Of a DNA stretch of 64,000 nt, positions 6,368 to 29,118 are shown piece after piece. How positions within the stretch are numbered: position 1 is the first letter of the stretch; every line of letters starts with the position of its first letter. The notes below the pieces were generated by a model. The model searched no databases, was not told the origin of the DNA, and saw only the letters and a list, made by a program, of their open reading frames with translations. This DNA is from Bacteroidales bacterium (lineage in GTDB: Bacteria; Bacteroidota; Bacteroidia; Bacteroidales; P3), in NCBI GenBank assembly GCA_017454015.1, contig JAFTDW010000006.1, positions 8,452 to 72,451 of the forward strand. Direction: 5' to 3'. The translations under genes were made by a program, and so were the position numbers.

Positions 6368-6390
6368 TCACCAACAATTAATGGGAATTA

Positions 6391-12562: not shown

Positions 12563-12592
12563 CCCTCACAGATAATCATCACCGTCTATATT

Positions 12593-13015
12593 TTGTCACT
12601 CGTTATAAAAAAGTATATATTTCTGCTATCCCTCTGCACCCTCTTTGCCGCAACCCTCTCGGCACAGGACAACCCCTCTAAGCGCGAACGCAAGAAAAAC
12701 CTTGTCGTCAAGGAGTGGAACACCAAGGTTGGCTCCAAGACTCCCTATCTCGACAACATGGTGACCTACGACGGGCAGGGCCGCAAGATAGAGGAGATAG
12801 AATATGCCTCATACGGCCAGCGCAAGCGCACGGTATACGAGTATGAGGGCACCTCCAGCCGCTGCTCGCGCCAGATAGAGTACGACGACAAGAACAAGCC
12901 GGTGCGTATACGCAAGTTTGAATACAACGCCGACGGTACCAAAGCCAAGCAGTACAACTACAAACCCGACGGCAAGCTTGTAAGCACCAAGACCTTCGAG
13001 TACTCCTACCGATAG
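12593..13015 (+). CDS. Small secreted protein with YD-like repeats
   Basis: Signal peptide followed by repeated Y(E/D)Y..G/K motifs (YEYEG, EYDDKNKP, FEYNADG, YNYKPDGK, FEYSY). Confidence 0.4.
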   Translation: MSLVIKKYIFLLSLCTLFAATLSAQDNPSKRERKKNLVVKEWNTKVGSKTPYLDNMVTYDGQGRKIEEIEYASYGQRKRTVYEYEGTSSRCSRQIEYDDKNKPVRIRKFEYNADGTKAKQYNYKPDGKLVSTKTFEYSYR

Positions 13016-13119
13016 AATAAAGCAAAACCAAGCCGTGAGAGAGCTTATTCGCACAATTCGTGTAATTCGTGGTAAAAAACGCGTGATAAATAGAGAAACA
13101 ATTAGTGTTATTGTGAGTC

Positions 13120-13947
13120 ATGCCACTGTCGATACTTGATACCATGCAACCCATAGGCCTCGACGACATGAAAGCCGTGCGCCTTATGAAGCGTGTGGAT
13201 CAGAAATATATAGCGTCTGCCGCCATCCTGCCCCACCTGCTTGCCGCCGTGGCTGGTGACTATTATGTGCAGCAGATAGAGGGCAACCCCATAGCGCCAT
13301 ACCATACGCTCTACTTCGACACCTGCGACCTTGCCATGTACACCATGCACCACAACCGCAAGCTTAACCGCCAGAAGCTGCGCGTGCGGTGTTACCGCTC
13401 TACCCAGACAACTTTCTTCGAGATAAAGAACAAGGACAACAAGCGCAAGACCTCCAAGGTGCGCATCCCCATCGACTCGGCGCAGTTCGACACCTGCCTC
13501 GCGCTGCCCGAGGTGTCGGCATTCGTCAACGCCAACACCCCTTACGGCATAGCTCATGAAGTGGCGGGTCGGCAACGTGTTGCAGCGGACCTGCAGTCCG
13601 CCAACAGAAACCTCCTCTTTCCATGCCTTGAAAACTTCTTCTGCCGCATAACACTCGTCGACAAAGCCATGCACGAGCGTGTGACCATCGACCAAGGCAT
13701 ATCGTTCCACAACAGAGCAACCGGTCGCGACGCCGACATAGGCCATATCCTTGTCATCGAGGTGAAGCATGAGCAGGGAGCCCCACAGTCGGACATGGAG
13801 CAGGCGCTCCACGCCCTTCATGTCCTGCCTCGCCGCATGAGCAAGTATTGCATAGGCACAGCGCTCACCAACCAGGCGGCAAAGTCCAACCGCTTCAAGC
13901 CCAAACTGCTGTATATAGACAGATGCCGCTCAATCAGTATGCCATAA
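13120..13947 (+). CDS. VTC-domain (triphosphate-tunnel / polyphosphate-polymerase-like) protein
   Basis: R.D.KY near the N-terminus (KRVDQKYI) and LRVRCYR...FFEIKNK, resembling the tunnel-fold ExK-type strands of VTC/CYTH proteins. Confidence 0.6.
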   Translation: MPLSILDTMQPIGLDDMKAVRLMKRVDQKYIASAAILPHLLAAVAGDYYVQQIEGNPIAPYHTLYFDTCDLAMYTMHHNRKLNRQKLRVRCYRSTQTTFFEIKNKDNKRKTSKVRIPIDSAQFDTCLALPEVSAFVNANTPYGIAHEVAGRQRVAADLQSANRNLLFPCLENFFCRITLVDKAMHERVTIDQGISFHNRATGRDADIGHILVIEVKHEQGAPQSDMEQALHALHVLPRRMSKYCIGTALTNQAAKSNRFKPKLLYIDRCRSISMP

Positions 13948-14012
13948 CGTTGTGACATCACACCACAAATAACGATATAACGTTATAACGAAATAACAAC
14001 AGGTAACCTCTA

Positions 14013-14109
14013 AAAATTGCCCTGAAAGGGCATAAATCAATCAGCCCAATGGCAACGCCTTGGGTAAATCAGTAAGTTACAATTGCGCCCTGTAAGGGCA
14101 AAATCATTA
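14013..14109. repeat. Three-hairpin core of the same repeat family (copy C, no terminal inverted repeats)
   Basis: gccctgaaagggc, cccaatggcaacgccttggg and gccctgtaagggc occur in the same order and spacing as in copies A and B. Confidence 0.55.
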
Positions 14110-14150
14110 AAGACGAATTAATAGGACTCACCAACAAAAGAACTTATAAA

Positions 14151-14864
14151 ATGCTTTTACTCCAATCCGATTTCGACAGCAGCATAGCTGCCGAGTTCCA
14201 GCAAGGCGACCACTCCATCGACATCCTTGGTGTCCCCGTGTTCGACGGCCCGGGTCTTTGGGAGATGCTGATACGCTTCGGCATCAACCTGCTTGTCTGC
14301 TGGATAATCACCCACTTCCTTTATTACCGCAAGAGCCGCCGTCGCGACTACTACTTCACCTACATGCTCTTCAGCACTGCCATCTTCTTCATACTCTACC
14401 AGCTGCAGAACATGAAGATAGAGGTCGGCATTGCCCTGGGTCTCTTTGGTATCTTCAGCATGATACGCTACCGCACCGAGCAGCTGCCAATACGTGAGAT
14501 GACCTACCTCTTCGTGCTCATAGCAATAAGCATCATCAACGGGGCCGGCCTCACTTCGAGCTACACGGCATTCATAGTCACCAATCTGCTCTTTGTGTTG
14601 ATCATCACCTTGCTTGAGCTCTTGGGCTTCAGCAGCCGGAAAGCCACCAAGATCATCACCTACGAGAAGATAGAACTCATCAAGCCCGACCGCCGCGACG
14701 AGCTCATGGCCGACCTCCGTGCCCGCACCGGCCTCGACATCACCAAGATACAGATAGGCTCCATCGACTTCCTAAAAGACACCGCCTTCCTTAAAGTCAC
14801 CTACATCAGCGACGACCCCGAGCCCAACGACATCGACATGATAACCAAGTTCAAGAAGAAGTAA
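14151..14864 (+). CDS. Polytopic membrane protein (DUF4956-like, usual partner of bacterial VTC-domain genes)
   Basis: Several hydrophobic helices followed by a soluble C-terminal domain, immediately downstream of the VTC gene. The family name is unverified. Confidence 0.5.
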   Translation: MLLLQSDFDSSIAAEFQQGDHSIDILGVPVFDGPGLWEMLIRFGINLLVCWIITHFLYYRKSRRRDYYFTYMLFSTAIFFILYQLQNMKIEVGIALGLFGIFSMIRYRTEQLPIREMTYLFVLIAISIINGAGLTSSYTAFIVTNLLFVLIITLLELLGFSSRKATKIITYEKIELIKPDRRDELMADLRARTGLDITKIQIGSIDFLKDTAFLKVTYISDDPEPNDIDMITKFKKK

Positions 14865-15673
14865 TGCTTCAGGGAGGTATCAAAATGGAATCTGATAATA
14901 ATACTATATCCTTTTTAGGTAAGACCGACATTGGTCTGCAACGAGCAAACAATGAAGATGCTTTTGTTGTGCAACGGCTTGATGACAGCGCCGTTCTTGC
15001 TGTTGTCATTGACGGTGTCGGTGGATACGAGGGTGGAGAGGTTGCTGCTGAGATAGCGCAGAATGAGATACGTAATTACATGAAAGAGTTTACCAGCGGA
15101 GAGAAAATGGAGTTGTTGAAACAGGCAGTTGTCTGTGCCAACAATGCCATATATGAGCGTCGTCGGTTCGATTTCGCACGGCAAAATATGGGCTGTGTTC
15201 TTACGGCTATAGTAGTTGACTCTGCATGTGAAGTTGTATACATGGCGCATGTTGGCGATACTCGCTTATATCAGTACCGTTATGGTGAACTCTGTAAACT
15301 CTCGCACGACCATTCTTTGGTTGGTCAACTTGAGGATAGCGGCGAGTTGACAGAGGAGCAAGCCATGAAACATCCCCGACGCAACGTAATAAGTCGAGTG
15401 ATAGGCTCGGAATACCATACTGTTGACGATTCGGATTTTATTGAAGCGAACCAGTTTCGGTTGTTGCCCAACTCAATATTTATGCTTTGTTCCGATGGGT
15501 TGACAGATTTAATAACGTCACATCAGATAGCCTCTATATTGGAACGGGATCTAACCCTTGACGAGAAAGTGCAAACGCTTGTCAATTCAGCCAACGAGGC
15601 AGGCGGTAAGGACAATACGACGGTCGTTTTGGTGCAATACAATACCAAGGTGACCTCTAAAAATAGCCTCTGA
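14864..15673 (+). CDS. PP2C-family Ser/Thr protein phosphatase
   Basis: Ordered PP2C motifs: RANNEDAF, IDGVGGYEGGEVAA, HVGDTRLY, LCSDGLTD, GGKDNTTVVLV. The start overlaps the upstream stop (TAATG). An alternative start is the ATG at 14885. Confidence 0.9.
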   Translation: MLQGGIKMESDNNTISFLGKTDIGLQRANNEDAFVVQRLDDSAVLAVVIDGVGGYEGGEVAAEIAQNEIRNYMKEFTSGEKMELLKQAVVCANNAIYERRRFDFARQNMGCVLTAIVVDSACEVVYMAHVGDTRLYQYRYGELCKLSHDHSLVGQLEDSGELTEEQAMKHPRRNVISRVIGSEYHTVDDSDFIEANQFRLLPNSIFMLCSDGLTDLITSHQIASILERDLTLDEKVQTLVNSANEAGGKDNTTVVLVQYNTKVTSKNSL

Positions 15674-15702
15674 GAGGCTAACTCTCAATTGCTTATGCCA
15701 TG

Positions 15703-15794
15703 AACTGAGGTCATGAGCACCTATGAAATAAAAACAAGGATAGCGAATAACTGAGGTCATGAGCACCTATGAAATGTAGACAAGGATAGCGAAT
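15703..15794. repeat. Tandem direct repeat, 2 x 46 bp
   Basis: Units 15703-15748 and 15749-15794 differ at 3 of 46 positions. Each begins with the hairpin catga-actgagg-tcatg. Confidence 0.85.
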
Positions 15795-15846
15795 AACGGG
15801 CATAATCAAAACAATGAATATTCAGAACCCGCTATAAAACTGTTGT

Positions 15847-16509
15847 ATGAAAACAAAATTGGAGCAAATCAGCAAGAACTCAGGAGTTGTCGCTGTCAAT
15901 GCGATAAAGTCGAACATTCTGTTAAAGCGGCTAATCAGAAGTAGTCTTGACATAGTATTGTTATGCGTTGTGCTGTGTCTTTGTTTCTCTTGCGGAACCT
16001 CTGTGGATAACAGTGGTGATAGTGTCGGGGATTTTGAGGATAGCGACTTGTCGGTCGTCGACTATCAGGTTCCAGATGGGTTGGAAGGTGAGTCCGACAG
16101 TGACACAGACTGTCCAATGGGTTGTTTTTTGAGCGAGGATTCCAACTATGTCTTGACATTGCAACGTTTGTCCAGTGACTCACCTGATAGTGCATACAGA
16201 GCCGTGATATATGACCGTGAAAGGTGGTATAAAGGGGAATGGATATGTGAACCGCTGTCGGTTCCTGCATATATTGGTTATGGTACGGTCTGCAGGTCGT
16301 CCTCTTTGTTGGAGTTCACATTCGACAATGGCTATATTGATTCTGATGGTATATGGCTACATCTAAGTTGCAGTGTTCCATGTGATTCTTTGATTATTGC
16401 TGCCGAAATACCTTTTTCGTATAGAGAGAAAGATGTTAATGTGCGTTTCAAGTCCTGTTCATGGGACAGTCTTAAACGATGGTGGCGCAACCCGATATGT
16501 GGAAACTGA
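15847..16509 (+). CDS. Acidic, Cys-rich putative lipoprotein (220 aa)
   Basis: Hydrophobic segment ending in the lipobox-like LCFSCG. AT-rich codon usage like the rest of the island. No motif recognised. Confidence 0.5.
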   Translation: MKTKLEQISKNSGVVAVNAIKSNILLKRLIRSSLDIVLLCVVLCLCFSCGTSVDNSGDSVGDFEDSDLSVVDYQVPDGLEGESDSDTDCPMGCFLSEDSNYVLTLQRLSSDSPDSAYRAVIYDRERWYKGEWICEPLSVPAYIGYGTVCRSSSLLEFTFDNGYIDSDGIWLHLSCSVPCDSLIIAAEIPFSYREKDVNVRFKSCSWDSLKRWWRNPICGN

Positions 16510-16618
16510 TATTTTTCCTACCATATAAAAAAAAAGTTGTAACTTTGTACGGATTAACATAAAATAGCATATATGGCGTAATACAGCAGAAACGTAATAA
16601 AATAAAGGACTAACCGCT

Positions 16619-16763
16619 CTTTATTCTCGCAGTAAGAATCTGGAAAATTCTAATGAATATGGGAATAAGTACGTGTGAGTTCACGCCTTGGGCGTGAGTT
16701 ATTCGCATTCTTATCTATATTCAGGGTATTCCAGAACCTTTACTGCAGATAAGGAGCATAAAG
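16619..16763 (+). other. Long imperfect palindrome (about 145 nt) in the leader of the vWA-like gene
   Basis: The centre is tcacgcc-ttg-ggcgtga at 16681-16697. Outer arms are ctttat...gcagtaa...tctggaa versus ttccaga...ttactgc...ataaag. Confidence 0.55.
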
Positions 16764-16815
16764 AATAATTCAGCGCCTTTTCTTTTTTTTGTCAAAATTC
16801 AAATAATTATCTGGT

Positions 16816-18303
16816 ATGAAAACACAAAGTTGCTTATGTCTGAAAAGACTCATGGTTTTCCTTATCGTAAACGCCATGCTGTTTATATCCTGTAGCAATG
16901 AACTGGATAAAACTATCCGTTCTGCTATAAGTGATGGTGTTATATCGAATGATGAATGGGAGAAGTTAAAAACTGAATCTCTCTCAACAGACCAATTCAT
17001 AGGTGAAGACGGTGGCATTGATACAGTAGAACTGAAAAACCATGTTGTGGAATATGCAAAAAGTCTGCGAGGTGTAGATAGTATTGTTTTTTCGAGTGAA
17101 GGAGAATCGGGATCCCCTATTTCTCCGATCTTGTTCAAATTTTTCCTTGAAAGAAGTGGTAGCATGATACCATACGATGCACCGAGTACAAATGGGTATT
17201 TTAAGATTGCTATAGCGGATTTGTTGTCTGCGGTGCCAAATAGTTGCGACGAAAACAACCTGATGTTTATTGTCAATAATAAGGTGACTCCTTTCCATAA
17301 AACATTCAAAGATTTTGTGCAGAGCTCTGATATAATGAAGGAGACAGATGGCTATGGAGATCCCAAATACACGGATTTCTCATGTATATTCGACTCTGTA
17401 TTGAACCGAACAAAAGATAACGAGGTAAGTATCCTTGTATCGGATATGATATACTCCGATAAGAACTATCAAAATAAGAGTCCGGAACGCATAACTGAGG
17501 AGGCCTCTCTTCTGACAAAAAAAATATTTCGTGGGCATGAGGATAAGGACATACTGATTATTAAGTTGAATTCTGGTTACAATGGTCAATATTATCCATA
17601 TAACAATCCCATTAAAGGAAACGTTTATCTTGGTAACCGACCGTATTATATGATGATAGTCGCTAAATCTGATGTTATGCATAGATTGTTCAATCTGCCC
17701 GAGTATAGTAGGTTCTGTGATTTTAAGCACCTAAAGGGATATGAAAACTATTATTGTTTTACCCGCCAGTCCGACAATCCCAAATATTCCATTCTGTTCA
17801 AGGGCAGTAGCCGTTTTAAGGCTGAGAAACAAAAAAAGACGGAGATACATAGTATCAAAAGACTTACTGCTGACCGCTCAGGGGAGACAAAATTAGTTGT
17901 TGCTGTTGACATGAGCTCCATTATTACAGAACCAGAATACTTGACAAATGTCCAAAACTATCAGGTCCAGTCAAAATCAGGCTTCGTTGTGTCTGATGTT
18001 AAAGCCATTGACAAGGCAGATATGCCTGGGGACATTTATCATTATGTTCCTACTGCGACACATCTGCTTGAACTGACGACAACAGAGGGAATAGTAAACG
18101 AAACAGTCAGTGTAAGTCTTATGAATAAGTTCCCTTTGTGGATAGAGAAATCATCAACAAACGACGACAGGAATACAAAAACACCAAGCTTTGCCAATAC
18201 TACCTTTGGCTTCAAAAGTATGATGTATGGAATATATGAAGCCATATACCCTACCATTAAGCCTCCTGTTTATTATGAACTGATACTGAATGTCAAAAAG
18301 TAA
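16816..18303 (+). CDS. vWA-like lipoprotein (495 aa)
   Basis: Lipobox (LFISCS). MIDAS-like ERSGSM at nt 17149-17166, with downstream T (YTDFSC) and SD (ILVSDMIY) at vWA-like spacing. Confidence 0.5.
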   Translation: MKTQSCLCLKRLMVFLIVNAMLFISCSNELDKTIRSAISDGVISNDEWEKLKTESLSTDQFIGEDGGIDTVELKNHVVEYAKSLRGVDSIVFSSEGESGSPISPILFKFFLERSGSMIPYDAPSTNGYFKIAIADLLSAVPNSCDENNLMFIVNNKVTPFHKTFKDFVQSSDIMKETDGYGDPKYTDFSCIFDSVLNRTKDNEVSILVSDMIYSDKNYQNKSPERITEEASLLTKKIFRGHEDKDILIIKLNSGYNGQYYPYNNPIKGNVYLGNRPYYMMIVAKSDVMHRLFNLPEYSRFCDFKHLKGYENYYCFTRQSDNPKYSILFKGSSRFKAEKQKKTEIHSIKRLTADRSGETKLVVAVDMSSIITEPEYLTNVQNYQVQSKSGFVVSDVKAIDKADMPGDIYHYVPTATHLLELTTTEGIVNETVSVSLMNKFPLWIEKSSTNDDRNTKTPSFANTTFGFKSMMYGIYEAIYPTIKPPVYYELILNVKK

Positions 18304-18336
18304 TAATTATTAATCTAAATTAAAAACTTAAATATC

Positions 18337-18795
18337 ATGAAAAATCCCAAGAATTCAAAAAAAACAGACTGGATATGGCTGATGGCAGGTCTTACAGTCA
18401 CTGCCTTGTTCTTGATTTTTAGTACAAGTGTCTATGAATTGTTATATTACGATGGGGAATTTTCCAATGAAATGTATAATAAAAATATGTATCTTGTTGT
18501 TGCTGGGTTAACCTCCCTTGTCGTATGGTCTACGGCTATTCTGTATTATTGGATCATTGATCATTTCGAAAGGTGGTATCATTGGTTGGTCGCCGTTGTA
18601 TTGGTGGTTGTACTATCTCCAGTTGTTGTGTTTTCACATTGTGCTGGCTACTTCTATGATAGCAACCTCGATGAACTTATATCGCCATTGGTTAATTTCA
18701 ATATCATTAATACAATAGTGGCGTTAGTGCTCTTTTTTATTGTTTGTCTCTCAGTAAAGCATCTTAGCCGCCATTGTTCATCAACCCCATTTTAA
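18337..18795 (+). CDS. Small membrane protein with four predicted TM helices (152 aa)
   Basis: Four hydrophobic stretches of about 20 aa (WIWLMAGLTVTALFLIF; LVVAGLTSLVVWSTAILYYWII; WLVAVVLVVVLSPVVVF; IINTIVALVLFFIVCLSV). Confidence 0.6.
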   Translation: MKNPKNSKKTDWIWLMAGLTVTALFLIFSTSVYELLYYDGEFSNEMYNKNMYLVVAGLTSLVVWSTAILYYWIIDHFERWYHWLVAVVLVVVLSPVVVFSHCAGYFYDSNLDELISPLVNFNIINTIVALVLFFIVCLSVKHLSRHCSSTPF

Positions 18796-18845
18796 TCAAT
18801 AGTGACATCAACGTTTTTAATAGCATAACTTAAAACATTAACAAT

Positions 18846-20435
18846 ATGAGATTATTTGTATTTGCAATAGGTGGCACAGGCTCGCGAGTACTCACCTCCT
18901 TGATAATGATGCTGGCAGCTGGTGCCAGACCTAAAGACAACAATGGAAGATCTATAAATAATTTGTCCATTGTCCCAATTATCATCGATCCGCACGAAAC
19001 CAACGATGCCCTAACTAAAGTTGAAGAACTTTTGAGAAGGTATCGTACCATGCACCGCAGAATCCACGGGGATAATCCAAACAATGAAGGCTATTTTGGC
19101 GTAAAAATAGAAACGCTCCAAGAAGTCGAGCCCCAACGCGTTAATAATGACACTTTCTTTTTCAAAATGACAAAAGTCAGTGAAAGTGCATTTAGTAAAT
19201 TCATCGACATAGAGACAATGGAACTAACTAATAAGCTTTTTGCCAAGATGCTATTTTCACAGGATGAATTAAACACAAAGATGGAAGAGGGCTTTTATGG
19301 TTCGCCAAATATCGGGTGCATTGCGTTAAACGAGTTCAGAAAGTCTCCTGACTTTAATGCTTTCAGAGCTGCTTATAGTGAAGGGGACAGGATTTTCTTC
19401 ATCGGTTCTATTTTTGGTGGTACTGGGGCGTCGGGTTTGCCACTATTCATTTCATCTATTCGAGAACTTGTCAATCTTGATAATGGCGACGGTGCCGCCG
19501 ATGGCAGGGTCAACTGTGCAGAAGCTCCTATCGGAGCTCTTATTGTCATGCCATATTTCAGTATTGCCAATAATAATGGTGGAGCAGCTGGCGGAACCCA
19601 AATAAGAGATAGCGAATTTATTGTGAAAACTAAATCTGCTTTGCGCTACTACCACTCCAATCTCAATAGATACATCAACAGGACATACTACATATCCGAC
19701 CCGAAGGGTACTGCAGGATTTACTTATGATCCAGGTGGAGAAGGGCAAAGAGAAAACAAAGCACACATTGTAGAATTTGCTGGTGCATTAGCCATGTTCG
19801 ATTTTCTTGCTATAAATGACGATGGTTTAAACGTCAATAATCCAGATGGCGGTGAAAGAATAACCGCAGTGGCGCCACTATATAAGAGTTATGGATTGAA
19901 CACAGATGATGCATATATTCATTTTGCTGGTTTGTCTAGACAAACCAACCGGGTGATATTGAATGCAATGATGGGTTTCTATATGTTAAGGCAATTTATG
20001 AAGAATCACATGGGGGATATGCTTACTAAACCCTTTGCAAATCAATACGATAAGAATCTTACAGAAGCCTTATATAGAGAAGATGAAATAACTGGGATAT
20101 TTAATATGTTTGACGAATGGATTAGTCAAATGAAGGCTCATGGCAATGGAGCTAACAATCTCCAACTGTATGGTGATTATAGCGCACAAGATAAGGATTT
20201 CTCTAACTTGTTCTTTGGCTCGCCAGAAACCAAAACATCACGTCTTTTGGGACTCAAAGGCTCTGTGAAAATAAATGATGTTGTAAAAGCTCTAAACGAG
20301 GCCGCAGAAATCATAGGCAATATGGATTCGCCTAATAATGGTGAGGTTGCGTATGCTAGGTGGTATAATGTCGCCTACAGGGCAATGAATAACATAATTG
20401 ACAATAAATTTGATATAACAACTCTAATACAATAA
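18846..20435 (+). CDS. Divergent tubulin/FtsZ-superfamily-like GTPase (529 aa)
   Basis: N-terminal AIGGTGSRV (GGTGS = nt 18870-18884) and FGGTGASG (nt 19416-19436) match the T1 loop and the [SAG]GGTG[SA]G T4 signature. Confidence 0.55.
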   Translation: MRLFVFAIGGTGSRVLTSLIMMLAAGARPKDNNGRSINNLSIVPIIIDPHETNDALTKVEELLRRYRTMHRRIHGDNPNNEGYFGVKIETLQEVEPQRVNNDTFFFKMTKVSESAFSKFIDIETMELTNKLFAKMLFSQDELNTKMEEGFYGSPNIGCIALNEFRKSPDFNAFRAAYSEGDRIFFIGSIFGGTGASGLPLFISSIRELVNLDNGDGAADGRVNCAEAPIGALIVMPYFSIANNNGGAAGGTQIRDSEFIVKTKSALRYYHSNLNRYINRTYYISDPKGTAGFTYDPGGEGQRENKAHIVEFAGALAMFDFLAINDDGLNVNNPDGGERITAVAPLYKSYGLNTDDAYIHFAGLSRQTNRVILNAMMGFYMLRQFMKNHMGDMLTKPFANQYDKNLTEALYREDEITGIFNMFDEWISQMKAHGNGANNLQLYGDYSAQDKDFSNLFFGSPETKTSRLLGLKGSVKINDVVKALNEAAEIIGNMDSPNNGEVAYARWYNVAYRAMNNIIDNKFDITTLIQ

Positions 20436-20442
20436 TCAAGTC

Positions 20443-23400
20443 ATGACAACACTAGAGTATCGTGAAAATGGCAATCCGGGATGGACTGCATGCAATGAAT
20501 ATACAGAACAACAGATAAATGCTATTCTAAACCCCAATAAGGTGGATTCCACAAAGATTTCTGTTCCATCGCCTTTTGCGCGGTTCGATTTGGTTCAGAA
20601 GGCTTTCTCTTGTCTGGCGGGAAATGCAAATGGATCTGAGCCCGACGACATAAAGCGTGTCTCCAATGCTCTCGATATGTATGAACTTTTTTATGAGAGT
20701 GCCGGTGGCGGGAACTTAAATATAGTAGAATGGCAAAAAAACGTAGCCATCGGCGAATTGCTTGACGGAAAATCCCTCCAGCATGAATTATATGGTGATG
20801 CCTTGAACCTATACATGGGTTTTGAGAATTATGGTTTCAGAGGAGATAATGTGGTAATTCACATAATTACTGATGAAAATGGGGATCCTATTGGCTGTAC
20901 ATCACCAACGTCAATGTTCTTGTCTGCCCCAGAATATGATTGTAAGCCGTTGGATAGGATAAGAATTGAGGGTGATAAGCCACTGTTTGGAGGTCCTCGC
21001 ATGTTGTGGGAACGTGACAATGACTTCATTCTGTACGTTTACCGGCAAGAGGCATATATGAGGGGTTGTGGAATCCAAATGGAAACACTACAGTCTTTCT
21101 TTACATACCTCGCAAGCCAGCGTGAAGTGATTAAGACTAAAAAGCTGGATATATACAGGATAATTAATAATCTTGTGTACGGCGAGAATGAAATGGAAGC
21201 GGATTATGAAAGAACAGATTGCTATGTTTTAGGTTGTGGGTTGTTCACCCGTAGAAGACAAAATGTTGCTGACAGGATTCGTAATACAAGTGACTTTACC
21301 ATACATTCAGACAAAACCAATAGTAGACCGTTGGTCTTGACCAATAGTAGCGCGGCTACATATAATGGTTGGAACTATCTTTCAGAAACTATCAGGTTCG
21401 ATAGCAACGAACATAAGATAAATTATCAGCAAATAAGATTAGATGAGACCCGTCATAAGTTGCCTGGTACAAATGTTGATTATGATGAAGGTTGGCTTTG
21501 TGAATGTGATTTTTTGTCTGATGTACTGGTTCAATTGCCATACCCCTTGGATTGTACCCATTTCTTCAATGGCAATATGGATACACCAATCAGACAGACT
21601 AAATATTATCTGCCACCAATCCGTTCAAAATATTTTGAGTTTTTCAATGTGGATACCCTTTATGATTCCCAAAATAGAAATGACAGAAATGGTAATGCAA
21701 AAAAACTAGAAATCAAAGAGGTTGAGAAAAATGGGAAACTCGAAAAGGTGGTGGTTAGTCTATTGATTCCTGTATCCCAAGGCCGCAGAATGGTTAAGCT
21801 TGTTAGAGAATATTTACCTGGTGAATTTGAATTAAACACAGCCGGTAGTCTCAGAAATGATTCTGCTGTGGGTCATATCGCCAAGTGTCCTATTGTTGTT
21901 AATATCTTTCCTTTTGTGCGTCTGGAAACCAACAATTATTACAAAATCCAGATGATTGATTTATTCAATAATGGAAAAGGTGTAATTGTAACGATGCATG
22001 CCGTTGGTAATGGTGAAATTGAATGGCAAAGTGAATATAATCGTTCAGCAAAAAATACTTATAAAACTTATTATTACGCTTTGAATGAGGCGTTTGACTA
22101 TTTGCGGCTAAAAATAACTAATGGCCAAGTTTGCCACGAATCCATTTTAATTCCTAAGTGGGAAGGTGCTGTTGATCAGGGGAATATTAGGTATAAGTTT
22201 GCATTTGACTTTGGTACAACCAACACCCATATCGCTGTCCGAAATATGGATAATGGTGAATTTATGGATTTCGCTATTGGGAGGTCTATGGTGTCAACAT
22301 TCAACCAAAACCAGGCAAGGAGGAATGTTTATAATCAGGAAGAACAGAAGAATTTTGATTTTTTTGAAATATTGCAGAAACAAGAATTCGTTCCTAATGA
22401 AATAGCAAATGGGGCTATATGCAAGTTCCCAATCAGGACTGTGGCTATGCGTAATAGAAACCTTGAAATAGATGGAACTGTACCAGAGGCCTTGGTGCAT
22501 GTAAATATTCCTTTTATATATGGTATAGAAGACTATGGCACTCAAGAGAATTTTCTTGTACCGAATCTGAAATGGGCAAGAGAAGATGCTGCCAATAAGT
22601 TATCCAGCGCGTTCATTGAGGAGTTGGTTGTTTTGGCAAGGATTTTTGCTTTAGAGCATGATGGCAATTTGGCTGCGTGTTCATTTGTGTGGACGTATCC
22701 ATTAAGCATGGTTTCGGGAGTAGTCAATAGGTTTAATGAAAAATGGCAAAGATATTTTGGGAAATATTTCTTGGGTAAGGAAAGAGCAGTCCCAAATAAT
22801 TGTGTGAAGAAAATGTCGGAATCTATAGCCCCAGTTTTCTACTACATGGATGATGGAGAGACATTAGAGAATATGACCTTGTCAATAGATATAGGTGGGG
22901 GAACATGTGATGTTGTCATAAAAAATGGTGACAAGATTAGTTTTACATCGTTCCAATTCGCGGCTGATGTAATCTTTGGTGCAGGGAAAGTCGGCAATAA
23001 CCCGATGATAAAAAAACACTATCATTCTGGAGACTTAAAAGGTATCTGTGAAAAGAAAATGCCAGAGGAGGCGTATAATTCCATTTTAGCAGATGATAGT
23101 GATTCCTCAGAAGCAAATTCATTTTTGTTCGGCCTTGAGAGCAATCCGCGGCTTGCAAACGAACCACTCGAGAGAAAGTCGTACAATGCAAAACTTAATG
23201 GTGATAATTATCGCAAAGTTATTTTCCTCTATTTTTATGCGTCGATTATTTATTATTTGACTAAGTTATTACAGGACTACAGATATCCGCAACCATGCAC
23301 TTTTATGTTTAGTGGCACGGGATCAAAAATACTGAGCATTATTGGGAATAATGATAATATAAGAAAATATACCACTGATTTGTTGAACTTGTTTTCAGAA

Positions 23401-23946
23401 GGAGAGTTCAAGTATACTCGTAATATAGATATCTTGATAGAGAGCGAAGAACCTAAGCAAATCACCGCAAAAGGTGCTCTCCATGAAGTGGCCGCTGATG
23501 ATAAACAAGACCCCGCAACTTTCTTTGCGGATCCTGATAATGTTGAAAGAGCGACTATTCACTACTCGTTGTACTATAATGAAGATAAGGATGGTGGGCC
23601 TATTCCATTGAATAATAAAGATTTGAAAAATGATGATCTTTTGAAAAATGTTTGCGAAAAAGTCAAAGCCTTCAATGAGGTGTTTTTAAATTGTATCAAT
23701 AATTTGAGCTTTGAAGATAAATATCTTTGCGATAAAAAAGGTATAAGTAAAATGTCTGAAATCCTCCGAGCTGAAAATGACAGGTTGCTTGACTATATGA
23801 AAACAGAAATAGAAAAAGAAGATAGAGTCATAATTCAAACTGATCCCCAAAGTATGTTTAAGGGGGCACTCTTCTTCTATCCAATAAAACAATTAATACA
23901 GCGCACAATAATGCCTAATTTTAATGAAGACCTTGCAGAAAATTAA
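20443..23946 (+). CDS. 1167-aa protein: unrecognised N-terminal half plus C-terminal Hsp70/actin-fold (ASKHA) ATPase-like domain
   Basis: Phosphate-1 AFDFGTTNTHIAV (nt 22201-22239), phosphate-2 LSIDIGGGTCDVVI (nt 22879-22920) and adenosine-like FMFSGTGSKIL (nt 23302-23334) occur in canonical order and spacing. Confidence 0.7.
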   Translation: MTTLEYRENGNPGWTACNEYTEQQINAILNPNKVDSTKISVPSPFARFDLVQKAFSCLAGNANGSEPDDIKRVSNALDMYELFYESAGGGNLNIVEWQKNVAIGELLDGKSLQHELYGDALNLYMGFENYGFRGDNVVIHIITDENGDPIGCTSPTSMFLSAPEYDCKPLDRIRIEGDKPLFGGPRMLWERDNDFILYVYRQEAYMRGCGIQMETLQSFFTYLASQREVIKTKKLDIYRIINNLVYGENEMEADYERTDCYVLGCGLFTRRRQNVADRIRNTSDFTIHSDKTNSRPLVLTNSSAATYNGWNYLSETIRFDSNEHKINYQQIRLDETRHKLPGTNVDYDEGWLCECDFLSDVLVQLPYPLDCTHFFNGNMDTPIRQTKYYLPPIRSKYFEFFNVDTLYDSQNRNDRNGNAKKLEIKEVEKNGKLEKVVVSLLIPVSQGRRMVKLVREYLPGEFELNTAGSLRNDSAVGHIAKCPIVVNIFPFVRLETNNYYKIQMIDLFNNGKGVIVTMHAVGNGEIEWQSEYNRSAKNTYKTYYYALNEAFDYLRLKITNGQVCHESILIPKWEGAVDQGNIRYKFAFDFGTTNTHIAVRNMDNGEFMDFAIGRSMVSTFNQNQARRNVYNQEEQKNFDFFEILQKQEFVPNEIANGAICKFPIRTVAMRNRNLEIDGTVPEALVHVNIPFIYGIEDYGTQENFLVPNLKWAREDAANKLSSAFIEELVVLARIFALEHDGNLAACSFVWTYPLSMVSGVVNRFNEKWQRYFGKYFLGKERAVPNNCVKKMSESIAPVFYYMDDGETLENMTLSIDIGGGTCDVVIKNGDKISFTSFQFAADVIFGAGKVGNNPMIKKHYHSGDLKGICEKKMPEEAYNSILADDSDSSEANSFLFGLESNPRLANEPLERKSYNAKLNGDNYRKVIFLYFYASIIYYLTKLLQDYRYPQPCTFMFSGTGSKILSIIGNNDNIRKYTTDLLNLFSEGEFKYTRNIDILIESEEPKQITAKGALHEVAADDKQDPATFFADPDNVERATIHYSLYYNEDKDGGPIPLNNKDLKNDDLLKNVCEKVKAFNEVFLNCINNLSFEDKYLCDKKGISKMSEILRAENDRLLDYMKTEIEKEDRVIIQTDPQSMFKGALFFYPIKQLIQRTIMPNFNEDLAEN

Positions 23947-24016
23947 GAGCCGTTTGAAGCAGAAAATGCAAGATTTGTCAAGTTATAAGATGTGTCATTA
24001 ATAAACCACAAAGATA

Positions 24017-24814
24017 ATGAAAAGAATAGTTGTTTTATTGCTGGCTGCATTTTTGGTAAACATCAATGTTTGTTGCAAGGATTTGCACAGACCATCCTCG
24101 CGCAATGTGGATAGCGTGCAAGCCGTTGAAACAGATAGTTCAAACGATCATCCCTCCCAAGATAGAGACAATAAAAATAAGAATAAGAGTTTCCCCAATT
24201 TGTCCTTTATAACTGCAATACTGGCTTTGGCGTTTTCCATATATCTCTTTTCGGAACTTAATAAATTGAAAAATGACGTACAGGCAAAGTTTAAACGTAG
24301 AAAAGAGGCTCATGTCTTATTGGAAAATAAAATGTCGAAATTTGAGAACGATTTGGAAAAGAATAGGGGCGTGATTACCGAGCTTAAGCGGCAAATGGCC
24401 GAAAGCGTCAGCCATATTAAAGAAAGCCAGAGCAATACGGTTTCGGAAAACAGTCACATGGATATTCCTCAGCCATCGGATAGTGTAAATAAAAAACAGG
24501 AAAAAAGACCAAGTGAGCTATATTGTGGGGCACCCGTCTCCAGCTGTTTTGAAGTCTCTGAAAGTTACTATCCAGGAGCACTGTATAAAATTGTAGTAAA
24601 TGGTAGTGGTACTGGAGATTTTGAGTTTGTTGATAGCATTGAAGCACTGGAGTGTGCGCAGATGTCTAGAACATCGTTTCTTGAGCCAGCTTGCAATGTT
24701 ATTAACAATGATATAGCGCGCTTTGACCACATATATACAGAGCGCAATGGAAAAGTTAAGAAAACTAACGATGGATGGGTGATTGTTGAGAAAGCTGTTG
24801 TACGCCTCGTATAA
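24017..24814 (+). CDS. Membrane protein with signal/TM segments, a coiled-coil stretch and a Cys-containing C-terminal domain (265 aa)
   Basis: N-terminal hydrophobic segment, a second TM (FITAILALAFSIYLF), then a heptad-like KLKNDVQAKFKRRKEAHVLLENKMSKFENDLEKNRGVITELKRQM. Confidence 0.5.
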   Translation: MKRIVVLLLAAFLVNINVCCKDLHRPSSRNVDSVQAVETDSSNDHPSQDRDNKNKNKSFPNLSFITAILALAFSIYLFSELNKLKNDVQAKFKRRKEAHVLLENKMSKFENDLEKNRGVITELKRQMAESVSHIKESQSNTVSENSHMDIPQPSDSVNKKQEKRPSELYCGAPVSSCFEVSESYYPGALYKIVVNGSGTGDFEFVDSIEALECAQMSRTSFLEPACNVINNDIARFDHIYTERNGKVKKTNDGWVIVEKAVVRLV

Positions 24815-24863
24815 TAAATCTGTACCAGAGGAGTAAGTTGATTTTAGTCAAATGGAATGATAC

Positions 24864-26018
24864 ATGAAACAAACTTGTAGAAATTGCAAGACTGTTATTG
24901 AGATAGACGAAAGCGAGCACAAAGAGGGCGAAACTGTTTTGGTGAAGTGTTCAGTATGTGGTACAATGACTGAATTTAACATACCAGTGTCGCAACCGGA
25001 TGATTCGAAAAAGTCTGATAACAATGGTATGGCTGTTATTGTATCGGAAGGGGTGCCTATTGCGCCGAATGGTAAAGACAAGAAAAATGATAACGGCAAG
25101 CAAAAGAAGGGTTCAGTTGAAACAAAGGTGAATGATAAGAGCCATAAGCCTGAAGTAAAAGAACAGAGTGCAGATTCTGCCATGTCAGGGAAAGGTGGCT
25201 GGACTCTGGGAGAAGGAAAGAACTCAGGCCACGTTCCCCCGCGCCCCCCCACCCCAAAAAATTTTTTGATAGTGTCAATTGTTATTACTGGTTTAGCACT
25301 TATTGTGGGAGGTTTCTTTCTCTACAAAAACGTATTCCTTCCCCGGAAGATTGATGCAGAGGCTCCAAGATATTATACTATAGCAGAACCATACCTTGCA
25401 CTACGTTCCACCCCATCTGCGGGAGGAGTTTACAATAAAGTTGACGAACTCTATTATGGCACGGAACTAATAACATATGATGTCGACTCAAAATGGTTGA
25501 AAGTCAAAACGGAAAAGACTTTTGACAAAAAGGAACAAAAAAGTGGTTACGTTGCTGCTGAACATGCTTTAAGCAAGCGTGATTTTTTCATTTTAAACAG
25601 CATCTGGGGCGATTATGAAAGTAAAAAAGTGATCGAGACAACAAAATGCAGAAAGGCAATTCTAAACTATTATAATAAGAACGGCTATATTGGTTCAATA
25701 TCCAAAGAAGAATTGGAGGCAGCTGAAATAGGAATAACCCCCAGCCCGGCAAATCAATGGCAGATTTTTAGCAAGAGTCCTAAGTCCCCCAACAACACCA
25801 CATATTTTAAAAGGCTGATAAATCCCAATTCAAAATTCACTGATTTCGCTGTCATTATACAAAACATTAATACAGGGAGAAGAAAACTTCTTTATTTCTA
25901 CTTTCTGGATGACGAGACGCCTGTTCTGTATCGTGACATATATGCGCCCAGAACTGGCTATATCAAACAAATAAAGCTTTTACCTAATCAAGAACTCTCT
26001 GTCGAATATACACCATGA
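24864..26018 (+). CDS. Zn-ribbon / Lys-rich linker / single TM / SH3b-like domain protein (384 aa)
   Basis: CRNC...(19 aa)...CSVC at nt 24879-24968, TM FLIVSIVITGLALIVGGFFLY, and an SH3b-like ALRSTPS...GTELITYDVDSKWLKVKT...GYVAAEH. Confidence 0.55.
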   Translation: MKQTCRNCKTVIEIDESEHKEGETVLVKCSVCGTMTEFNIPVSQPDDSKKSDNNGMAVIVSEGVPIAPNGKDKKNDNGKQKKGSVETKVNDKSHKPEVKEQSADSAMSGKGGWTLGEGKNSGHVPPRPPTPKNFLIVSIVITGLALIVGGFFLYKNVFLPRKIDAEAPRYYTIAEPYLALRSTPSAGGVYNKVDELYYGTELITYDVDSKWLKVKTEKTFDKKEQKSGYVAAEHALSKRDFFILNSIWGDYESKKVIETTKCRKAILNYYNKNGYIGSISKEELEAAEIGITPSPANQWQIFSKSPKSPNNTTYFKRLINPNSKFTDFAVIIQNINTGRRKLLYFYFLDDETPVLYRDIYAPRTGYIKQIKLLPNQELSVEYTP

Positions 26019-26590
26019 GCAAGAGAATTATAAGAATTGGCCTGTTTGTATTTTTTTTCATGGTTGTTGTTGCGCCGTATGTTGGTCTATATTATGTTGC
26101 AGGTTGGTACAAAAACAAACTGAAAACAGTGGAACGAGCATCTGTAGTGATTGTTAATAAAGAGACAATGACATTGTCTGTTATTGACTATAGGGGTGTA
26201 GAGAAGTCGCGATACCAGATGGCATGTGGGCAGAATTATGGAAACAAAAAAGCAATCGGCGACAAGAGGACTCCAGAAGGGGTGTTCCACGTTGACGGTA
26301 TACGTGATGCGTCAACTTGGACACATGACTTTAAAGATGGCAATGGAGAAATTCAGGGGGCATATGGTCCATGGTTTATTCGTTTGGATACACCTGGTTT
26401 TAATGGCATAGGCATACATGGCACCCATCAGCCAGAGTCCATCGGTAATAGAGCTACAGAAGGCTGTATAAGATTGAAAAACGAAGATGTCAGCGCCCTT
26501 AAAGAGATTGTTTATATAGGCATGCCTGTTATAATTATTCCTTCAACACATGATGCTGTTGCAATGTTAGATAAAAATGAATGCAATTAA
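26015..26590 (+). CDS. L,D-transpeptidase (YkuD-domain) protein with N-terminal membrane anchor
   Basis: Catalytic motif GIHGTHQPESIGNRATEGCIRL at nt 26411-26476. There is a 4-nt overlap with the upstream gene. Confidence 0.85.
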   Translation: MSKRIIRIGLFVFFFMVVVAPYVGLYYVAGWYKNKLKTVERASVVIVNKETMTLSVIDYRGVEKSRYQMACGQNYGNKKAIGDKRTPEGVFHVDGIRDASTWTHDFKDGNGEIQGAYGPWFIRLDTPGFNGIGIHGTHQPESIGNRATEGCIRLKNEDVSALKEIVYIGMPVIIIPSTHDAVAMLDKNECN

Positions 26591-27206
26591 ACATAAAACG
26601 TCATTGTTAGTTACGGTGCTTTCACTGCTAATAGCATGCACCAACTGTCTGTATTCATGTGTAAGTTGCCATGATCCCAAGCAGTTAGAACGTGATCTGC
26701 GGCTTATTTCACAATGTATAGAAGATGAATACGCAACAGAAAACACTCAGTCGCACAATAGCTATGACGATAAAGGGAATAGACGTAGACGTGCAAGAGG
26801 AAGGCGCGTGAAATGCAATCGAGAAGGAAAGTGGTTATTAGTGTTTTATGCTTGGGGTTCGGGCCATCAAATAGCAGGCCATAAAAGTACTTTTGGGCAT
26901 GCGTTTGTGGATATACCAACAATAGGGCCTGTCGGGTATTCGGGCAAGGTGACGAACCATGCAGAAGAAGTAAAGTATGCAACATACCGTTGTGTAGTTC
27001 CTGTGTCGGATGACCAGCTACAACGTGCAATAAACAAATACTGGGATTGGGTGAATAATACGCCTGAATATGAGTTAATGAATTACGATTGCACCACATT
27101 CACACTTGACATAGCTGATGCTGCTGGTGTGAAGTATGGCCTCAGAGCAGTGACTTGGTCTCCAGCTGGTTTTTTGCGAGCGTTGATAGAACACAATCCA
27201 CAATAA
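26577..27206 (+). CDS. Putative lipoprotein with a possible His...Cys hydrolase (permuted NlpC/P60-like) signature
   Basis: Signal/lipobox region. GHAFVDIPTIG followed about 70 aa later by NYDCTTFTLDIADAAG. The enzymatic call is inference only. Confidence 0.4.
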   Translation: MNAIKHKTSLLVTVLSLLIACTNCLYSCVSCHDPKQLERDLRLISQCIEDEYATENTQSHNSYDDKGNRRRRARGRRVKCNREGKWLLVFYAWGSGHQIAGHKSTFGHAFVDIPTIGPVGYSGKVTNHAEEVKYATYRCVVPVSDDQLQRAINKYWDWVNNTPEYELMNYDCTTFTLDIADAAGVKYGLRAVTWSPAGFLRALIEHNPQ

Positions 27207-27224
27207 ACAAACACTTTATAGAAT

Positions 27225-28235
27225 ATGAAAACAGGTGATAATGGGTTGTGTTTGTGCTTGTTTGCATTTGTTTTGTCGATTTCGGCCTGCACACATCCTG
27301 AACAAGATGGATGTATGGTCGCATTGAAATACAACAAATGCCAAGACGATTTCGTTGCCAAACTGCGAAATGATAGAGATGCATTTGTGAATGGATTTGA
27401 TTATCGTCAGTACGATAATAGGGAAGCGGCAGAAAACGAATTGAGAGAGATTCTTAGTGAAAATATCTCATTGTATGAGCATCAGATAATGTCCGCAAAT
27501 AAGGTCTACGATGAGTACCGTAGAAGATATACGAAAAACGCCCGGAAAAAATTCCAGTTCAATAATTCCTATTTGTTGGCGATAAATGATGTCGATTTTA
27601 ATCCAGAGAGAGTTATCTGTCAAATAATGGAGAGTGATAAGGTGTTAGCCTGCATGAGGCATTTGATGCCTCTGCGCCCCAAGATAGCTCAGATGTGCCG
27701 CGACCTCAAAGGTCGTGAACTGGTAGAACGCGGAGATTCCAGATATTTTAACGATGACTGGAAGTTGGTTATCGGTGAAGAGTGTGTGGATAAACTTATT
27801 GTGACAGACTCGTCAAAAAACAATGATAAGTGGAAATATTATGTGAAAATGCGTGTTAGAGATGGAGGTCATTATTTTAATGCTGTGGCAGAGATTGTAT
27901 ATACAGCAAGCGGATTAGACAAGGAATGGACATTGACAGATGTGATCAGCCAGAACCTGTCAATATACAAGACTCATATATATCGCAGCTCAATACCTCC
28001 GCCCAAGATTGAAGTTGTAAAGGACTATTGGGGGGATCCAATAAATAAAGATGTTACCATAAGTAGTACATGTGATTCGCCCTTGATAGTGGGTGGTGAA
28101 ATGTGGGTGGATGATGACATAGGATGGAAAAAGTTCGTCTTGACTCTAAGTTCGTTAGGTTCCTTTACAATACATTGTGGTTACCGTGTTGACCCCCTGC
28201 CGGTAATTCGTCTTGATTTTGTGGAAAAGAAATAA
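27225..28235 (+). CDS. Hypothetical lipoprotein (336 aa)
   Basis: Lipobox (LSISACT). Last tightly spaced gene of the island operon. No motif recognised. Confidence 0.5.
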   Translation: MKTGDNGLCLCLFAFVLSISACTHPEQDGCMVALKYNKCQDDFVAKLRNDRDAFVNGFDYRQYDNREAAENELREILSENISLYEHQIMSANKVYDEYRRRYTKNARKKFQFNNSYLLAINDVDFNPERVICQIMESDKVLACMRHLMPLRPKIAQMCRDLKGRELVERGDSRYFNDDWKLVIGEECVDKLIVTDSSKNNDKWKYYVKMRVRDGGHYFNAVAEIVYTASGLDKEWTLTDVISQNLSIYKTHIYRSSIPPPKIEVVKDYWGDPINKDVTISSTCDSPLIVGGEMWVDDDIGWKKFVLTLSSLGSFTIHCGYRVDPLPVIRLDFVEKK

Positions 28236-28510
28236 CCTATAGTCTGTCATTGGATTTTGATTCTAATATATGTATTGTTGGTGTTTATGCACATCATGTG
28301 TGCGGACGGGATGTCCTGTGCAACATACTTAGTATTCGTTTTGGTTCCAGCGCATTAGGAAAAGGTAGGACACGGCGTAGGTAGCGGCTTCTTTGGTCGA
28401 CGCCTCTTCTAGTGAATAGGTGGTGTAATGGGCTTTCTGCAATGGGCGTATGTTTTTTGCTGTAATTATCGAAAAACAATTATTTGGTTTAACATAATTG
28501 GATATCTTTA

Positions 28511-28976: not shown

Positions 28977-29118
28977 TAATGTGGTATTTGCGGGGATTAA
29001 TGTTCTTTTAAGTAGATACGAAAGATACGCGCGATATGTGGGGGCTCATTCGTGATATTCGTGCGATTAGTGTTCTTAAAAAAGTAAGAGAGATACGAGG
29101 AAGGAGGTGTGGGGGCGG

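Follow-up and report, generated by a model that had tools for sequence, protein, structure and literature searches.

A conserved five-gene operon in an AT-rich island

The DNA analysed here, referred to as the window, is a stretch of 64,000 nucleotides from a Bacteroidales bacterium (GenBank assembly GCA_017454015.1, contig JAFTDW010000006.1, positions 8,452 to 72,451 of the forward strand). It carries a conserved operon of five genes, which encode in this order a lipoprotein with a motif resembling a metal ion-dependent adhesion site (MIDAS), a small protein with four transmembrane (TM) helices, a tubulin-fold GTPase, a giant ATPase of the ASKHA (Hsp70/actin) fold and a bitopic coiled-coil protein (Table 1). 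The first four open reading frames (ORFs) are separated by gaps of 33, 50 and 7 nt. An original prediction, made by a model from the letters of the window alone, had already described these four; re-derivation gave identical coordinates and spacing, and all the motifs that it had quoted were reproduced by translation. However, it took the four genes for the whole unit and overlooked the fifth, whereas the conserved unit comprises five genes.

The conservation of the operon is based on a scan of one genome per GTDB species, in which at least 588 genomes contain a relative of the tubulin-like protein. From these genomes 80 loci were fetched for the synteny counts given throughout, and single loci are cited by number (L001 and so on). 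In 78 of the 80 loci the lipoprotein gene is followed by those for the 4-TM, the tubulin-like and the giant protein, in that order; the exceptions include loci truncated at contig ends. A hidden Markov model (HMM) of the fifth protein's C-terminal domain matches in 72 of the 80 loci as well as in the window, with a median distance of 22 nt from the preceding giant gene, and it also matches L081, L082 and L087. This fifth family surfaced, along with the other four, from an unbiased clustering of all flanking ORFs; apart from these five families, no flanking gene is conserved across the loci. Since the motifs described below are invariant in the family alignments and the same four-gene order recurs in 78 of the 80 loci, the arrangement is beyond chance, and the co-occurrence of the genes extends well outside this genome.

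The gene order is also kept in Fibrobacterota and Cyanobacteria. The most distant copies found, with 24-28% identity, are in a metagenome-assembled genome of Chitinispirillia and on an environmental Bacteroidota-like contig, both with the same order. Five cyanobacterial plasmids carry the module, namely those of Gloeothece verrucosa PCC 7822, three Picosynechococcus strains and Synechococcus NIES-970. For the cyanobacterial copies, hhalign gives a probability of 98.6% for the giant protein and 73% for the lipoprotein, and the Gloeothece orthologue of the tubulin-like protein scores 40.7 bits against Pfam Tubulin_2 (gathering cut-off 27). The lipoprotein gene of Gloeothece is divergently oriented. 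Those database copies of the module proteins that bear a name are called 'hypothetical protein', and the Gloeothece protein 'tubulin-like domain-containing protein'.

The AT-rich island noticed in the original prediction is borne out by the GC profile of the window: GC amounts to 0.33-0.43 over ~16500-29000 and to 0.51-0.63 outside, with a sharp right border at ~29000 and a gradual left border at 15000-16500. No flanking att-type repeats, tRNA gene or adjacent integrase were found at these borders. In L001 the module likewise lies inside an AT-rich island, at another genomic position. AT-richness as a property of the module itself was considered and rejected, the median GC difference to the flanks being +0.018 in 70 loci.

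A scan for sigma-70 promoters was uninformative (46 sites against 44.5 expected), and the two-box pattern TTTG-N17-21-TAnnTTTG has three matches, none of them upstream of the module. The -7 promoter element of Bacteroidetes has the consensus TAnnTTTG, and TAACTTTG at 16538-16545, ~270 nt upstream of the lipoprotein start, fits this element. A short GC-rich inverted repeat is also present upstream of the lipoprotein gene, at ~16683-16697.

Table 1. Features of the module and its surroundings; positions are those of the window, or of the named locus where one is given.
Feature	Position	Strand	Basis
Core gene 1, 495-aa periplasmic lipoprotein with MIDAS-like motif	16816-18303	+	signal peptide, alignment, synteny
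ERSGSM, MIDAS-like motif of the lipoprotein	17149-17166	+	translation; E112, S114, G115, S116, M117 invariant
Core gene 2, 152-aa inner-membrane protein, four TM helices	18337-18795	+	hydropathy, alignment, 78/80 loci
Core gene 3, 529-aa tubulin/FtsZ-superfamily GTPase, Tubulin_2 (FtsZl1-like) kind	18846-20435	+	AlphaFold2 (AF2), Foldseek, Pfam
T1 loop AIGGTGSRV	18864-18890	+	translation, family alignment
T4 signature GGTGASG	19416-19436	+	translation, family alignment
Core gene 4, 1167-aa cytoplasmic protein, C-terminal half ASKHA ATPase	20443-23946	+	AF2, Foldseek, PDB profile
ASKHA phosphate-1 motif AFDFGTTNTHIAV	22201-22239	+	translation, family alignment
ASKHA phosphate-2 motif LSIDIGGGTCDVVI, aligned to Hsc70 DLGGGTFD	22879-22920	+	translation, family alignment
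ASKHA adenosine motif FMFSGTGSKIL	23302-23334	+	translation, family alignment
Core gene 5, 265-aa bitopic membrane protein	24017-24814	+	C-terminal-domain HMM, alignment A6, hydropathy
AT-rich island carrying the module	16500-29000	.	GC 0.33-0.43
Lineage-variable accessory gene: MJ0042-type zinc ribbon (cytoplasmic), TM, SH3 (periplasmic)	24864-26018	+	Pfam, TIGR02098, hydropathy
Island cargo, not core: membrane-anchored YkuD L,D-transpeptidase	26015-26590	+	Pfam YkuD 1e-17
Island cargo, not core: two putative lipoproteins	26577-27206, 27225-28235	+	hydropathy
Cyanobacterial plasmid module, Gloeothece PCC 7822 plasmid Cy782204	L085 6881-16788		
Cyanobacterial plasmid module, Picosynechococcus PCC 8807 plasmid	L086 3592-12215		

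The five core proteins

The tubulin/FtsZ fold that had been proposed for the third protein is supported by structure prediction, by structure comparison and by the Pfam matches of its relatives. In the alignment of 37 sequences, IGGTG (residues 8-12, G9-G12) and GGTGA[SA]G (residues 191-197) are invariant or nearly so, a T3-like GSPNIG is also invariant, and the T4 motif of the family aligns to that of CetZ (3zid). The AF2 model, calculated with the family alignment as input, has a pLDDT of 86.8 and a pTM of 0.90. When this model was compared with the PDB by Foldseek, all of the 50 matches listed were tubulin chains or complexes, with probabilities of ~1.0 and E values from 6e-5 to 8e-4. The alignments extend over ~310 columns with TM-scores of 0.2-0.38; these scores are low, implying that the protein is a very divergent member of the superfamily.

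By itself, the tubulin-like protein of the window gives a sub-threshold match to Pfam Tubulin (E=0.013) and no Tubulin_2 match at E<=1. A per-member scan of the 37 relatives yields Tubulin_2 in 26 (best E=1.3e-5) and Tubulin in 17. The homologues number more than 1494, and in all loci the protein is between 494 and 561 aa long. In the model, the GTPase domain is followed by a mainly alpha-helical stretch made up of the C-terminal 190 residues, without a long coiled coil, and Pfam detects no FtsZ_C or Tubulin_C domain in the protein or its relatives.

The giant protein is organised in three parts: an alpha/beta plus beta-rich region (~40-580), the ASKHA domain (~580-1060) and ~100 helical residues at the end. 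The original prediction of an ASKHA fold in its C-terminal half agrees with three kinds of evidence. First, D589-x-G-T-x-N594 (D589, G591 and N594), D816-I-G-G-G-T-x-D823 and G958-T-G-S961 are invariant or nearly so in 31 sequences. Second, the AF2 model (pLDDT 83.3) retrieves MreB (1jcg, 3e-7), DnaK, BiP, actin and Arp by Foldseek, over ~480 columns with target TM-scores of up to 0.50, and viral Hsp70s at 5.5e-8. Third, a PDB search with the family profile finds the nucleotide-binding domain of Hsc70/Hsp70 (E=1.9e-5), aligned at NEPTAA...DLGGGTFD, and the match is confined to that domain.

The window protein alone has no Pfam match, and the matches of its family are weak and restricted to the actin-ATPase clan: FtsA in 13 of the 31 members, EutA in 10, and Ppx-GppA, MreB and HSP70. 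The last of these is found in two of the 31, with a best E value of 0.016, below the cut-off. An Hsp70/DnaK chaperone proper was therefore rejected, since the protein has neither a Pfam HSP70 match above cut-off nor a substrate-binding domain. SrfB proteins (PF07520) are bacterial proteins of ~1000 aa proposed to hold an actin/Hsp70-like ATPase. The giant protein does not belong to this family, which had been named as one to compare it with, as a single member of the 31 matches it with E=0.15.

The N-terminal ~580 residues of the giant protein are well modelled but have no PDB relative by profile. When the whole model is used, the Foldseek matches come overwhelmingly from the ASKHA half; beyond these there are only very weak ones to Ig-like viral proteins. 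A Walker A match in this region, GELLDGKS (residues 104-111), is not conserved in the family and was rejected as chance. The family as a whole is large, with 2567 clusters at 50% identity, 996 of them at E<=1e-30; of the best 150, almost all span the full length.

The first protein carries a signal peptide, as judged by hydropathy, and a conserved Cys26 in the alignment; hence the lipoprotein part of the 'vWA-like lipoprotein' originally predicted stands, as does the MIDAS-like motif, whereas the assignment to the von Willebrand factor A (vWA) family is unproven. In 35 Bacteroidales sequences the ExSxS residues (E112/S114/S116), T186 (+72) and D210 (+96) are invariant, with a vWA-like spacing. 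At the MIDAS position the Gloeothece orthologue has the canonical DGSGSM, L082 has DKTES and the Chitinispirillia copy a degenerate KNTAN. The gene lies upstream of the tubulin-like gene in 78 of the 80 loci.

None of the 35 family members matches a Pfam VWA family in the per-member scan, a PDB profile search with the family returned no vWA match, and none of 49 lipoprotein homologues has a precomputed Pfam domain. The best hhalign comparison, with 10 vWA domains, gives a probability of 30.6% (P=5e-4) and aligns both the MIDAS and the beta4 Asp with their vWA counterparts; other comparisons give 3.7%, out of register, and 12.8%. An HMM of six vWA domains, all eukaryotic, matched BatA/B-like ORFs in L069 and L073 and none of 78 lipoproteins. 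Because the in-register profile match is weak and is accompanied by no Pfam or PDB match, we label the protein 'MIDAS-like, possibly vWA'. Judging from its sequence, it may combine a divergent vWA-type domain with a beta-rich part at the C-terminus.

For the second protein, hydropathy shows four hydrophobic segments, in line with the four TM helices predicted. The alignment of 31 orthologues, in which cyanobacterial and mobile-element copies are included (alignment A7), reveals a C-terminal tail, predicted to be cytoplasmic, with the consensus RWWSSNCRHTPxP; the window protein has SRHCSSTPF. An FxRWYHW motif is conserved between helices 2 and 3. This motif and the tail are candidate docking sites.

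The fifth protein starts with a signal or first hydrophobic segment and a variable periplasmic stretch, followed by a TM helix (residues 59-82), a cytoplasmic coiled coil and a conserved C-terminal domain of ~100 aa (residues 167-264), for which no Pfam or PDB relative was found. In other loci this type of gene often occurs as two or three paralogues with variable periplasmic parts. Together with the N-terminal half of the giant protein and the 4-TM protein, the fifth protein's C-terminal domain makes up three families without any annotation.

Kinship, spread and possible function

The closest precedent for the module is FtsZl1, the basis of Pfam Tubulin_2 (PF13809), which was defined by Makarova and Koonin (2010, PMC2875224). 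Besides vWA proteins, FtsZl1 operons contain kinases, P-loop GTPases, OmpA and a large number of membrane proteins that are uncharacterised; the operons were predicted to form a membrane-remodelling system (PMC2875224). The supplementary table of that study lists Deinococcus operons with MotA/ExbB and OmpA and cyanobacterial ones with MotB-like genes, and the FtsZl1-vWA operon amb2957-2961 of Magnetospirillum ends in a 1626-aa DnaK-like gene. This class has been a purely computational prediction since 2010, with no experimental work in the literature that we searched.

The module is a compact, undescribed branch of these predicted FtsZl1/Tubulin_2-vWA systems. It shares with them a divergent tubulin/FtsZ GTPase without FtsZ_C/Tubulin_C and with T6-H7/T7 elements that are not recognisable from sequence, a neighbouring exported or membrane-bound protein with a (putative) vWA/MIDAS, several small membrane proteins in the operon, and variants with MotA/ExbB plus OmpA/MotB genes, in Deinococcus and cyanobacteria there and in L087 here. 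It differs in that the tubulin-like protein has ~500-530 aa and no coiled coil, in contrast to ~900-1200 aa with a long coiled coil, that the window member reaches no Pfam threshold, and that its vWA partner is not recognised by COG2304 or Pfam. Moreover, the gene set is a fixed one of five, without kinases or P-loop GTPases, and the giant ASKHA, 4-TM and bitopic families are outside the listed families A1-A2 and B1-B9. The single true Bacteroides case in the FtsZl1 table, B. caccae, has another protein of 913 aa and other neighbours, and the two 'B. capillosus' entries have a different neighbourhood. The statement of the original prediction that no named system combines these components is correct insofar as no named model or paper does so, and the searched literature holds no description of the module; on the other hand, the components are not unrelated to earlier findings, given the FtsZl1-vWA kinship and the DnaK-like gene in the Magnetospirillum operon.

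Neighbourhoods of this kind were recast by Kaur et al. (2020, PMC7159879) as DO-GTPase/GAP1 (GAP1-N2) conflict systems, mainly of Firmicutes and Actinobacteria, with the non-overlapping themes tubulin plus vWA, HSP70 plus GrpE, and kinase plus PP2C plus vWA. Common to these and the present module are tubulin- and HSP70-family NTPases accompanied by vWA domains (some extracellular there, putative here), zinc ribbons, TM segments and SH3-type peptidoglycan-binding domains, as well as mobile neighbourhoods and a proposed conflict role near the membrane. In contrast, the tubulin and Hsp70 folds are united here in one operon, in Bacteroidota, Fibrobacterota and Cyanobacteria, and the protein with the HSP70 fold is a 1167-aa fusion lacking a substrate-binding domain and a GrpE or DnaJ partner. 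The module also lacks a DO-GTPase: the island proteins show no conserved Walker A/P-loop and no GTPase match in Pfam, no profile search for GAP1 having been made.

Besides its position in an AT-rich island, the module is carried by the cyanobacterial plasmids and as cargo flanked by integrase and relaxase genes, demonstrating that it moves horizontally. In L087, L088 and L090 it lies directly behind a tyrosine integrase and a MobA relaxase and is extended by ZorA-like, ZorB/MotB-like and protease genes. The order in L087 (4710-19735) is MobA relaxase and tyrosine integrase, the five core genes, a ZorA-like gene encoding a coiled-coil MotA homologue, two genes of the ZorB/MotB-like type and, last, the gene of a trypsin-like protease with kinship to the defence model RT-Protease_XI. 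This variant, together with the idea of an envelope-anchored sensor that signals to the cytoplasm, recalls Zorya, the ZorAB-based anti-phage system; the likeness is nevertheless one of accessory genes in a single variant, and the window module has neither MotA/MotB-type genes nor effectors of the ZorC/ZorD type. In L095 the module is located between a NERD+UvrD helicase gene (1e-31) and a PDC-S14-like gene (1.6e-24). Twelve IMG/VR contigs carry the module; these matches are integrative-element or host regions, and a phage origin was rejected. Two population variants of the window contig are disrupted: the giant gene is split into 461 and 692 aa in L100 (11598-15105), and the PP2C gene found upstream of the module is not called intact in L099 (6070-6828), which suggests that both genes are dispensable in nature. 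In another lineage (L102-L105), the nuo operon and the module are separated by a DUF3791/DUF3990 gene pair (~5900-6650), and five unannotated co-directional genes and a DUF805 gene follow downstream.

The original prediction regarded the operon as a membrane-anchored, NTP-driven assembly for conflict or envelope remodelling, which seems reasonable. Our preferred interpretation, to which we assign a probability of roughly 0.4, is that the module is a mobile conflict or envelope-surveillance assembly, serving in defence against phages or other invaders or in the containment of envelope damage, rather than a housekeeping cytoskeleton. This role is suggested by the mobility of the module, its carriage on plasmids and integrative elements, the defence-type neighbours, the ZorAB-like and protease add-ons, the natural disruption and the precedent of the family. 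According to this proposal, the five proteins would form one envelope-spanning complex, in which the lipoprotein may serve as the periplasmic sensor or as a ligand- or metal-dependent binding part. Both cytoplasmic NTPases would be brought to the inner membrane by the 4-TM protein, by way of its conserved tail on the cytoplasmic side, and by the bitopic protein, whose cytoplasmic domain would dock them in a ZipA-like logic. A threshold-type response would then arise as GTP and ATP drive the tubulin-like and Hsp70-like proteins to assemble or remodel.

A more specific form of the proposal, which we consider doubtful at this level of detail, is that the module is a new mobile immune or damage-surveillance system: an event at the envelope would be sensed by the periplasmic MIDAS lipoprotein, which would then set off the co-assembly of GTPase and ATPase at the inner membrane. 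The effector would be the cytoskeletal proteins themselves, whose action would consist in containment, in sealing of the membrane or in abortive infection; ZorAB-like stators and a protease would sometimes strengthen the core module.

Several observations weigh against a conflict role. Whereas most conflict systems have exchangeable domains for enzymatic effectors, the strikingly uniform architecture of the module includes none, and no toxic effector was identified. Among 5027 PADLOC models (PADLOC-DB v2), there is no credible match for the core proteins of the window (chance-level E values of 0.002-0.08); nor is there one for those of the L087 copy. The core proteins of the window likewise match no phage family (PHROGs) above threshold, the NCBIfam scan gave nothing above threshold for the core genes, and no relative of the tubulin-like gene is present in 50,697 phage records. 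With regard to mechanism, the family alignment of the tubulin-like protein has no conserved column at residues 321-373, the T7 region after the putative H7 helix; as a T7-type loop is not conserved, the canonical coupling of GTP hydrolysis to polymerisation cannot be demonstrated. Nor is it proven that the lipoprotein is a vWA protein. Finally, most of the 80 loci have a flank-like GC (median +0.018), place the module among housekeeping genes (trmD, nusA, nuo) and have no integrase within 10 kb. Such surroundings fit a long-resident cellular machine.

That machine is the strongest rival, and we regard it as possible, though on balance rather unlikely. It would be a resident envelope-remodelling or cytoskeletal apparatus built on an FtsZ-FtsA-like, membrane-tethered pair, with the lipoprotein as the periplasmic partner, and might serve membrane or peptidoglycan remodelling, vesicles or cell shape. 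As in the FtsZ-FtsA(-ZipA) core of the divisome, a tubulin-fold GTPase gene stands beside an actin-fold ATPase gene and bitopic anchors, and in Pfam the giant family comes closest, albeit weakly, to FtsA (13/31) and MreB; the bitopic partner with its cytoplasmic globular domain resembles ZipA/EzrA-type FtsZ anchors in logic. The same architecture persists over ~1000 divergent clusters, the GC is ameliorated and the neighbours are housekeeping genes in most loci, and the lack of an identifiable toxic effector fits such a machine. This reading also agrees with the original FtsZl1 prediction (Makarova and Koonin 2010, PMC2875224). In the window island, genes for a YkuD L,D-transpeptidase, an SH3 protein and lipoproteins lie downstream, and GH25 lysozyme/MORN genes are near the module in seven loci, but these peptidoglycan-related neighbours are not conserved.

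The parallel with the divisome has further limits. The module shows no sequence orthology to it, no canonical T7 loop in the family alignment and no FtsZ C-terminal domain or peptide (nor Tubulin_C), its ASKHA protein is far larger than FtsA, and it possesses a periplasmic lipoprotein. The divisome is universal and essential, whereas the module is patchy across phyla, is located on plasmids and integrase/relaxase elements as well as inside an AT-rich island, and has its giant gene disrupted in natural variants.

TubZ-type and ParM-type NTPases segregate plasmids and prophages, so that the module could alternatively stabilise its own carrier element as a maintenance or partition device. The five cyanobacterial plasmids, the adjoining integrase and relaxase genes and the weak resemblance of the giant protein, at its phosphate-2 motif, to a ParM-like partition protein of PHROGs point in this direction. 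Yet envelope proteins, among them a periplasmic lipoprotein, make up three of the core five, most copies are chromosomal without mobile-element genes within 10 kb, none is found in the phage records, and neither a TubR/ParR-like DNA-binding adaptor nor centromere repeats were seen; we thus consider a partition role highly improbable.

The least probable alternative, scarcely credible in our view, is a phospho-signalling defence triad like TerY-P (Gao et al. 2020), which reportedly combines a TerY-type vWA protein, a PP2C phosphatase and a Ser/Thr kinase. It had been hinted at in the original prediction, and the PP2C gene 1.1 kb upstream and the MIDAS-like motif of the lipoprotein speak for it. 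The lead fails, however, as none of the 80 related loci has the PP2C gene, which one population variant carries in broken form, the Pfam-scanned island genes include no kinase domain, the lipoprotein family has no TerY or vWA match in Pfam, and the lipoprotein is exported whereas TerY is cytoplasmic. The probability left after these interpretations belongs to something not yet conceived.

Tubulin-fold and actin/Hsp70-fold proteins are the two great cytomotive families, and here one of each is combined in a fixed operon with three envelope proteins. Its occurrence extends over hundreds of Bacteroidales species from gut and rumen (Prevotella, Muribaculaceae), Fibrobacterota and plasmids of cyanobacteria. 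A defence system would add a mechanistically new class, and an envelope machine would be a new cell-biological structure in dominant gut bacteria. With five genes in ~8 kb, the module is small enough to clone and offers clear targets for point mutation. Cultivable carriers include Prevotella koreensis KCOM 3155, P. phocaeensis SN19, Prevotella sp. oral taxon 299 F0039, Gloeothece PCC 7822 and the Picosynechococcus strains, and therefore the role of these divergent tubulins and their possible polymerisation are directly testable.

Neighbouring genes in the window

Directly behind the operon lies the accessory zinc-ribbon/SH3 gene (Table 1). Its Pfam matches, Zn_ribbon_4 and SH3_3, are both below cut-off, and orthologues occur only in L001-L003; a related zinc-ribbon TM family is found downstream of the module in 18 loci. 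The YkuD gene is conserved only in L001 and L002 among the 80 loci.

Upstream of the module, the PP2C gene is identified by Pfam PP2C_2 (1.2e-14) and by the generic PADLOC model PDC-M21C (1e-9). This gene and the DUF4956 and 220-aa genes near it each occur in none of the 80 loci. The start codon of the PP2C gene overlaps the stop codon of the DUF4956 gene, and between the PP2C gene and the 220-aa ORF a 46-nt unit is present in two tandem copies, 93% identical, at 15703-15794. The cluster of Cthe_2159, DUF2490, VTC and DUF4956 genes at 9975-14864, which are polyphosphate-related families, belongs to the host backbone rather than to the island. At the other side of the island, at 31000-33603 on the - strand, there are two Omp28-family genes, one of which carries a C-terminal sorting domain of the type IX secretion system (T9SS), identifying the host as a T9SS-bearing member of the Bacteroidota.

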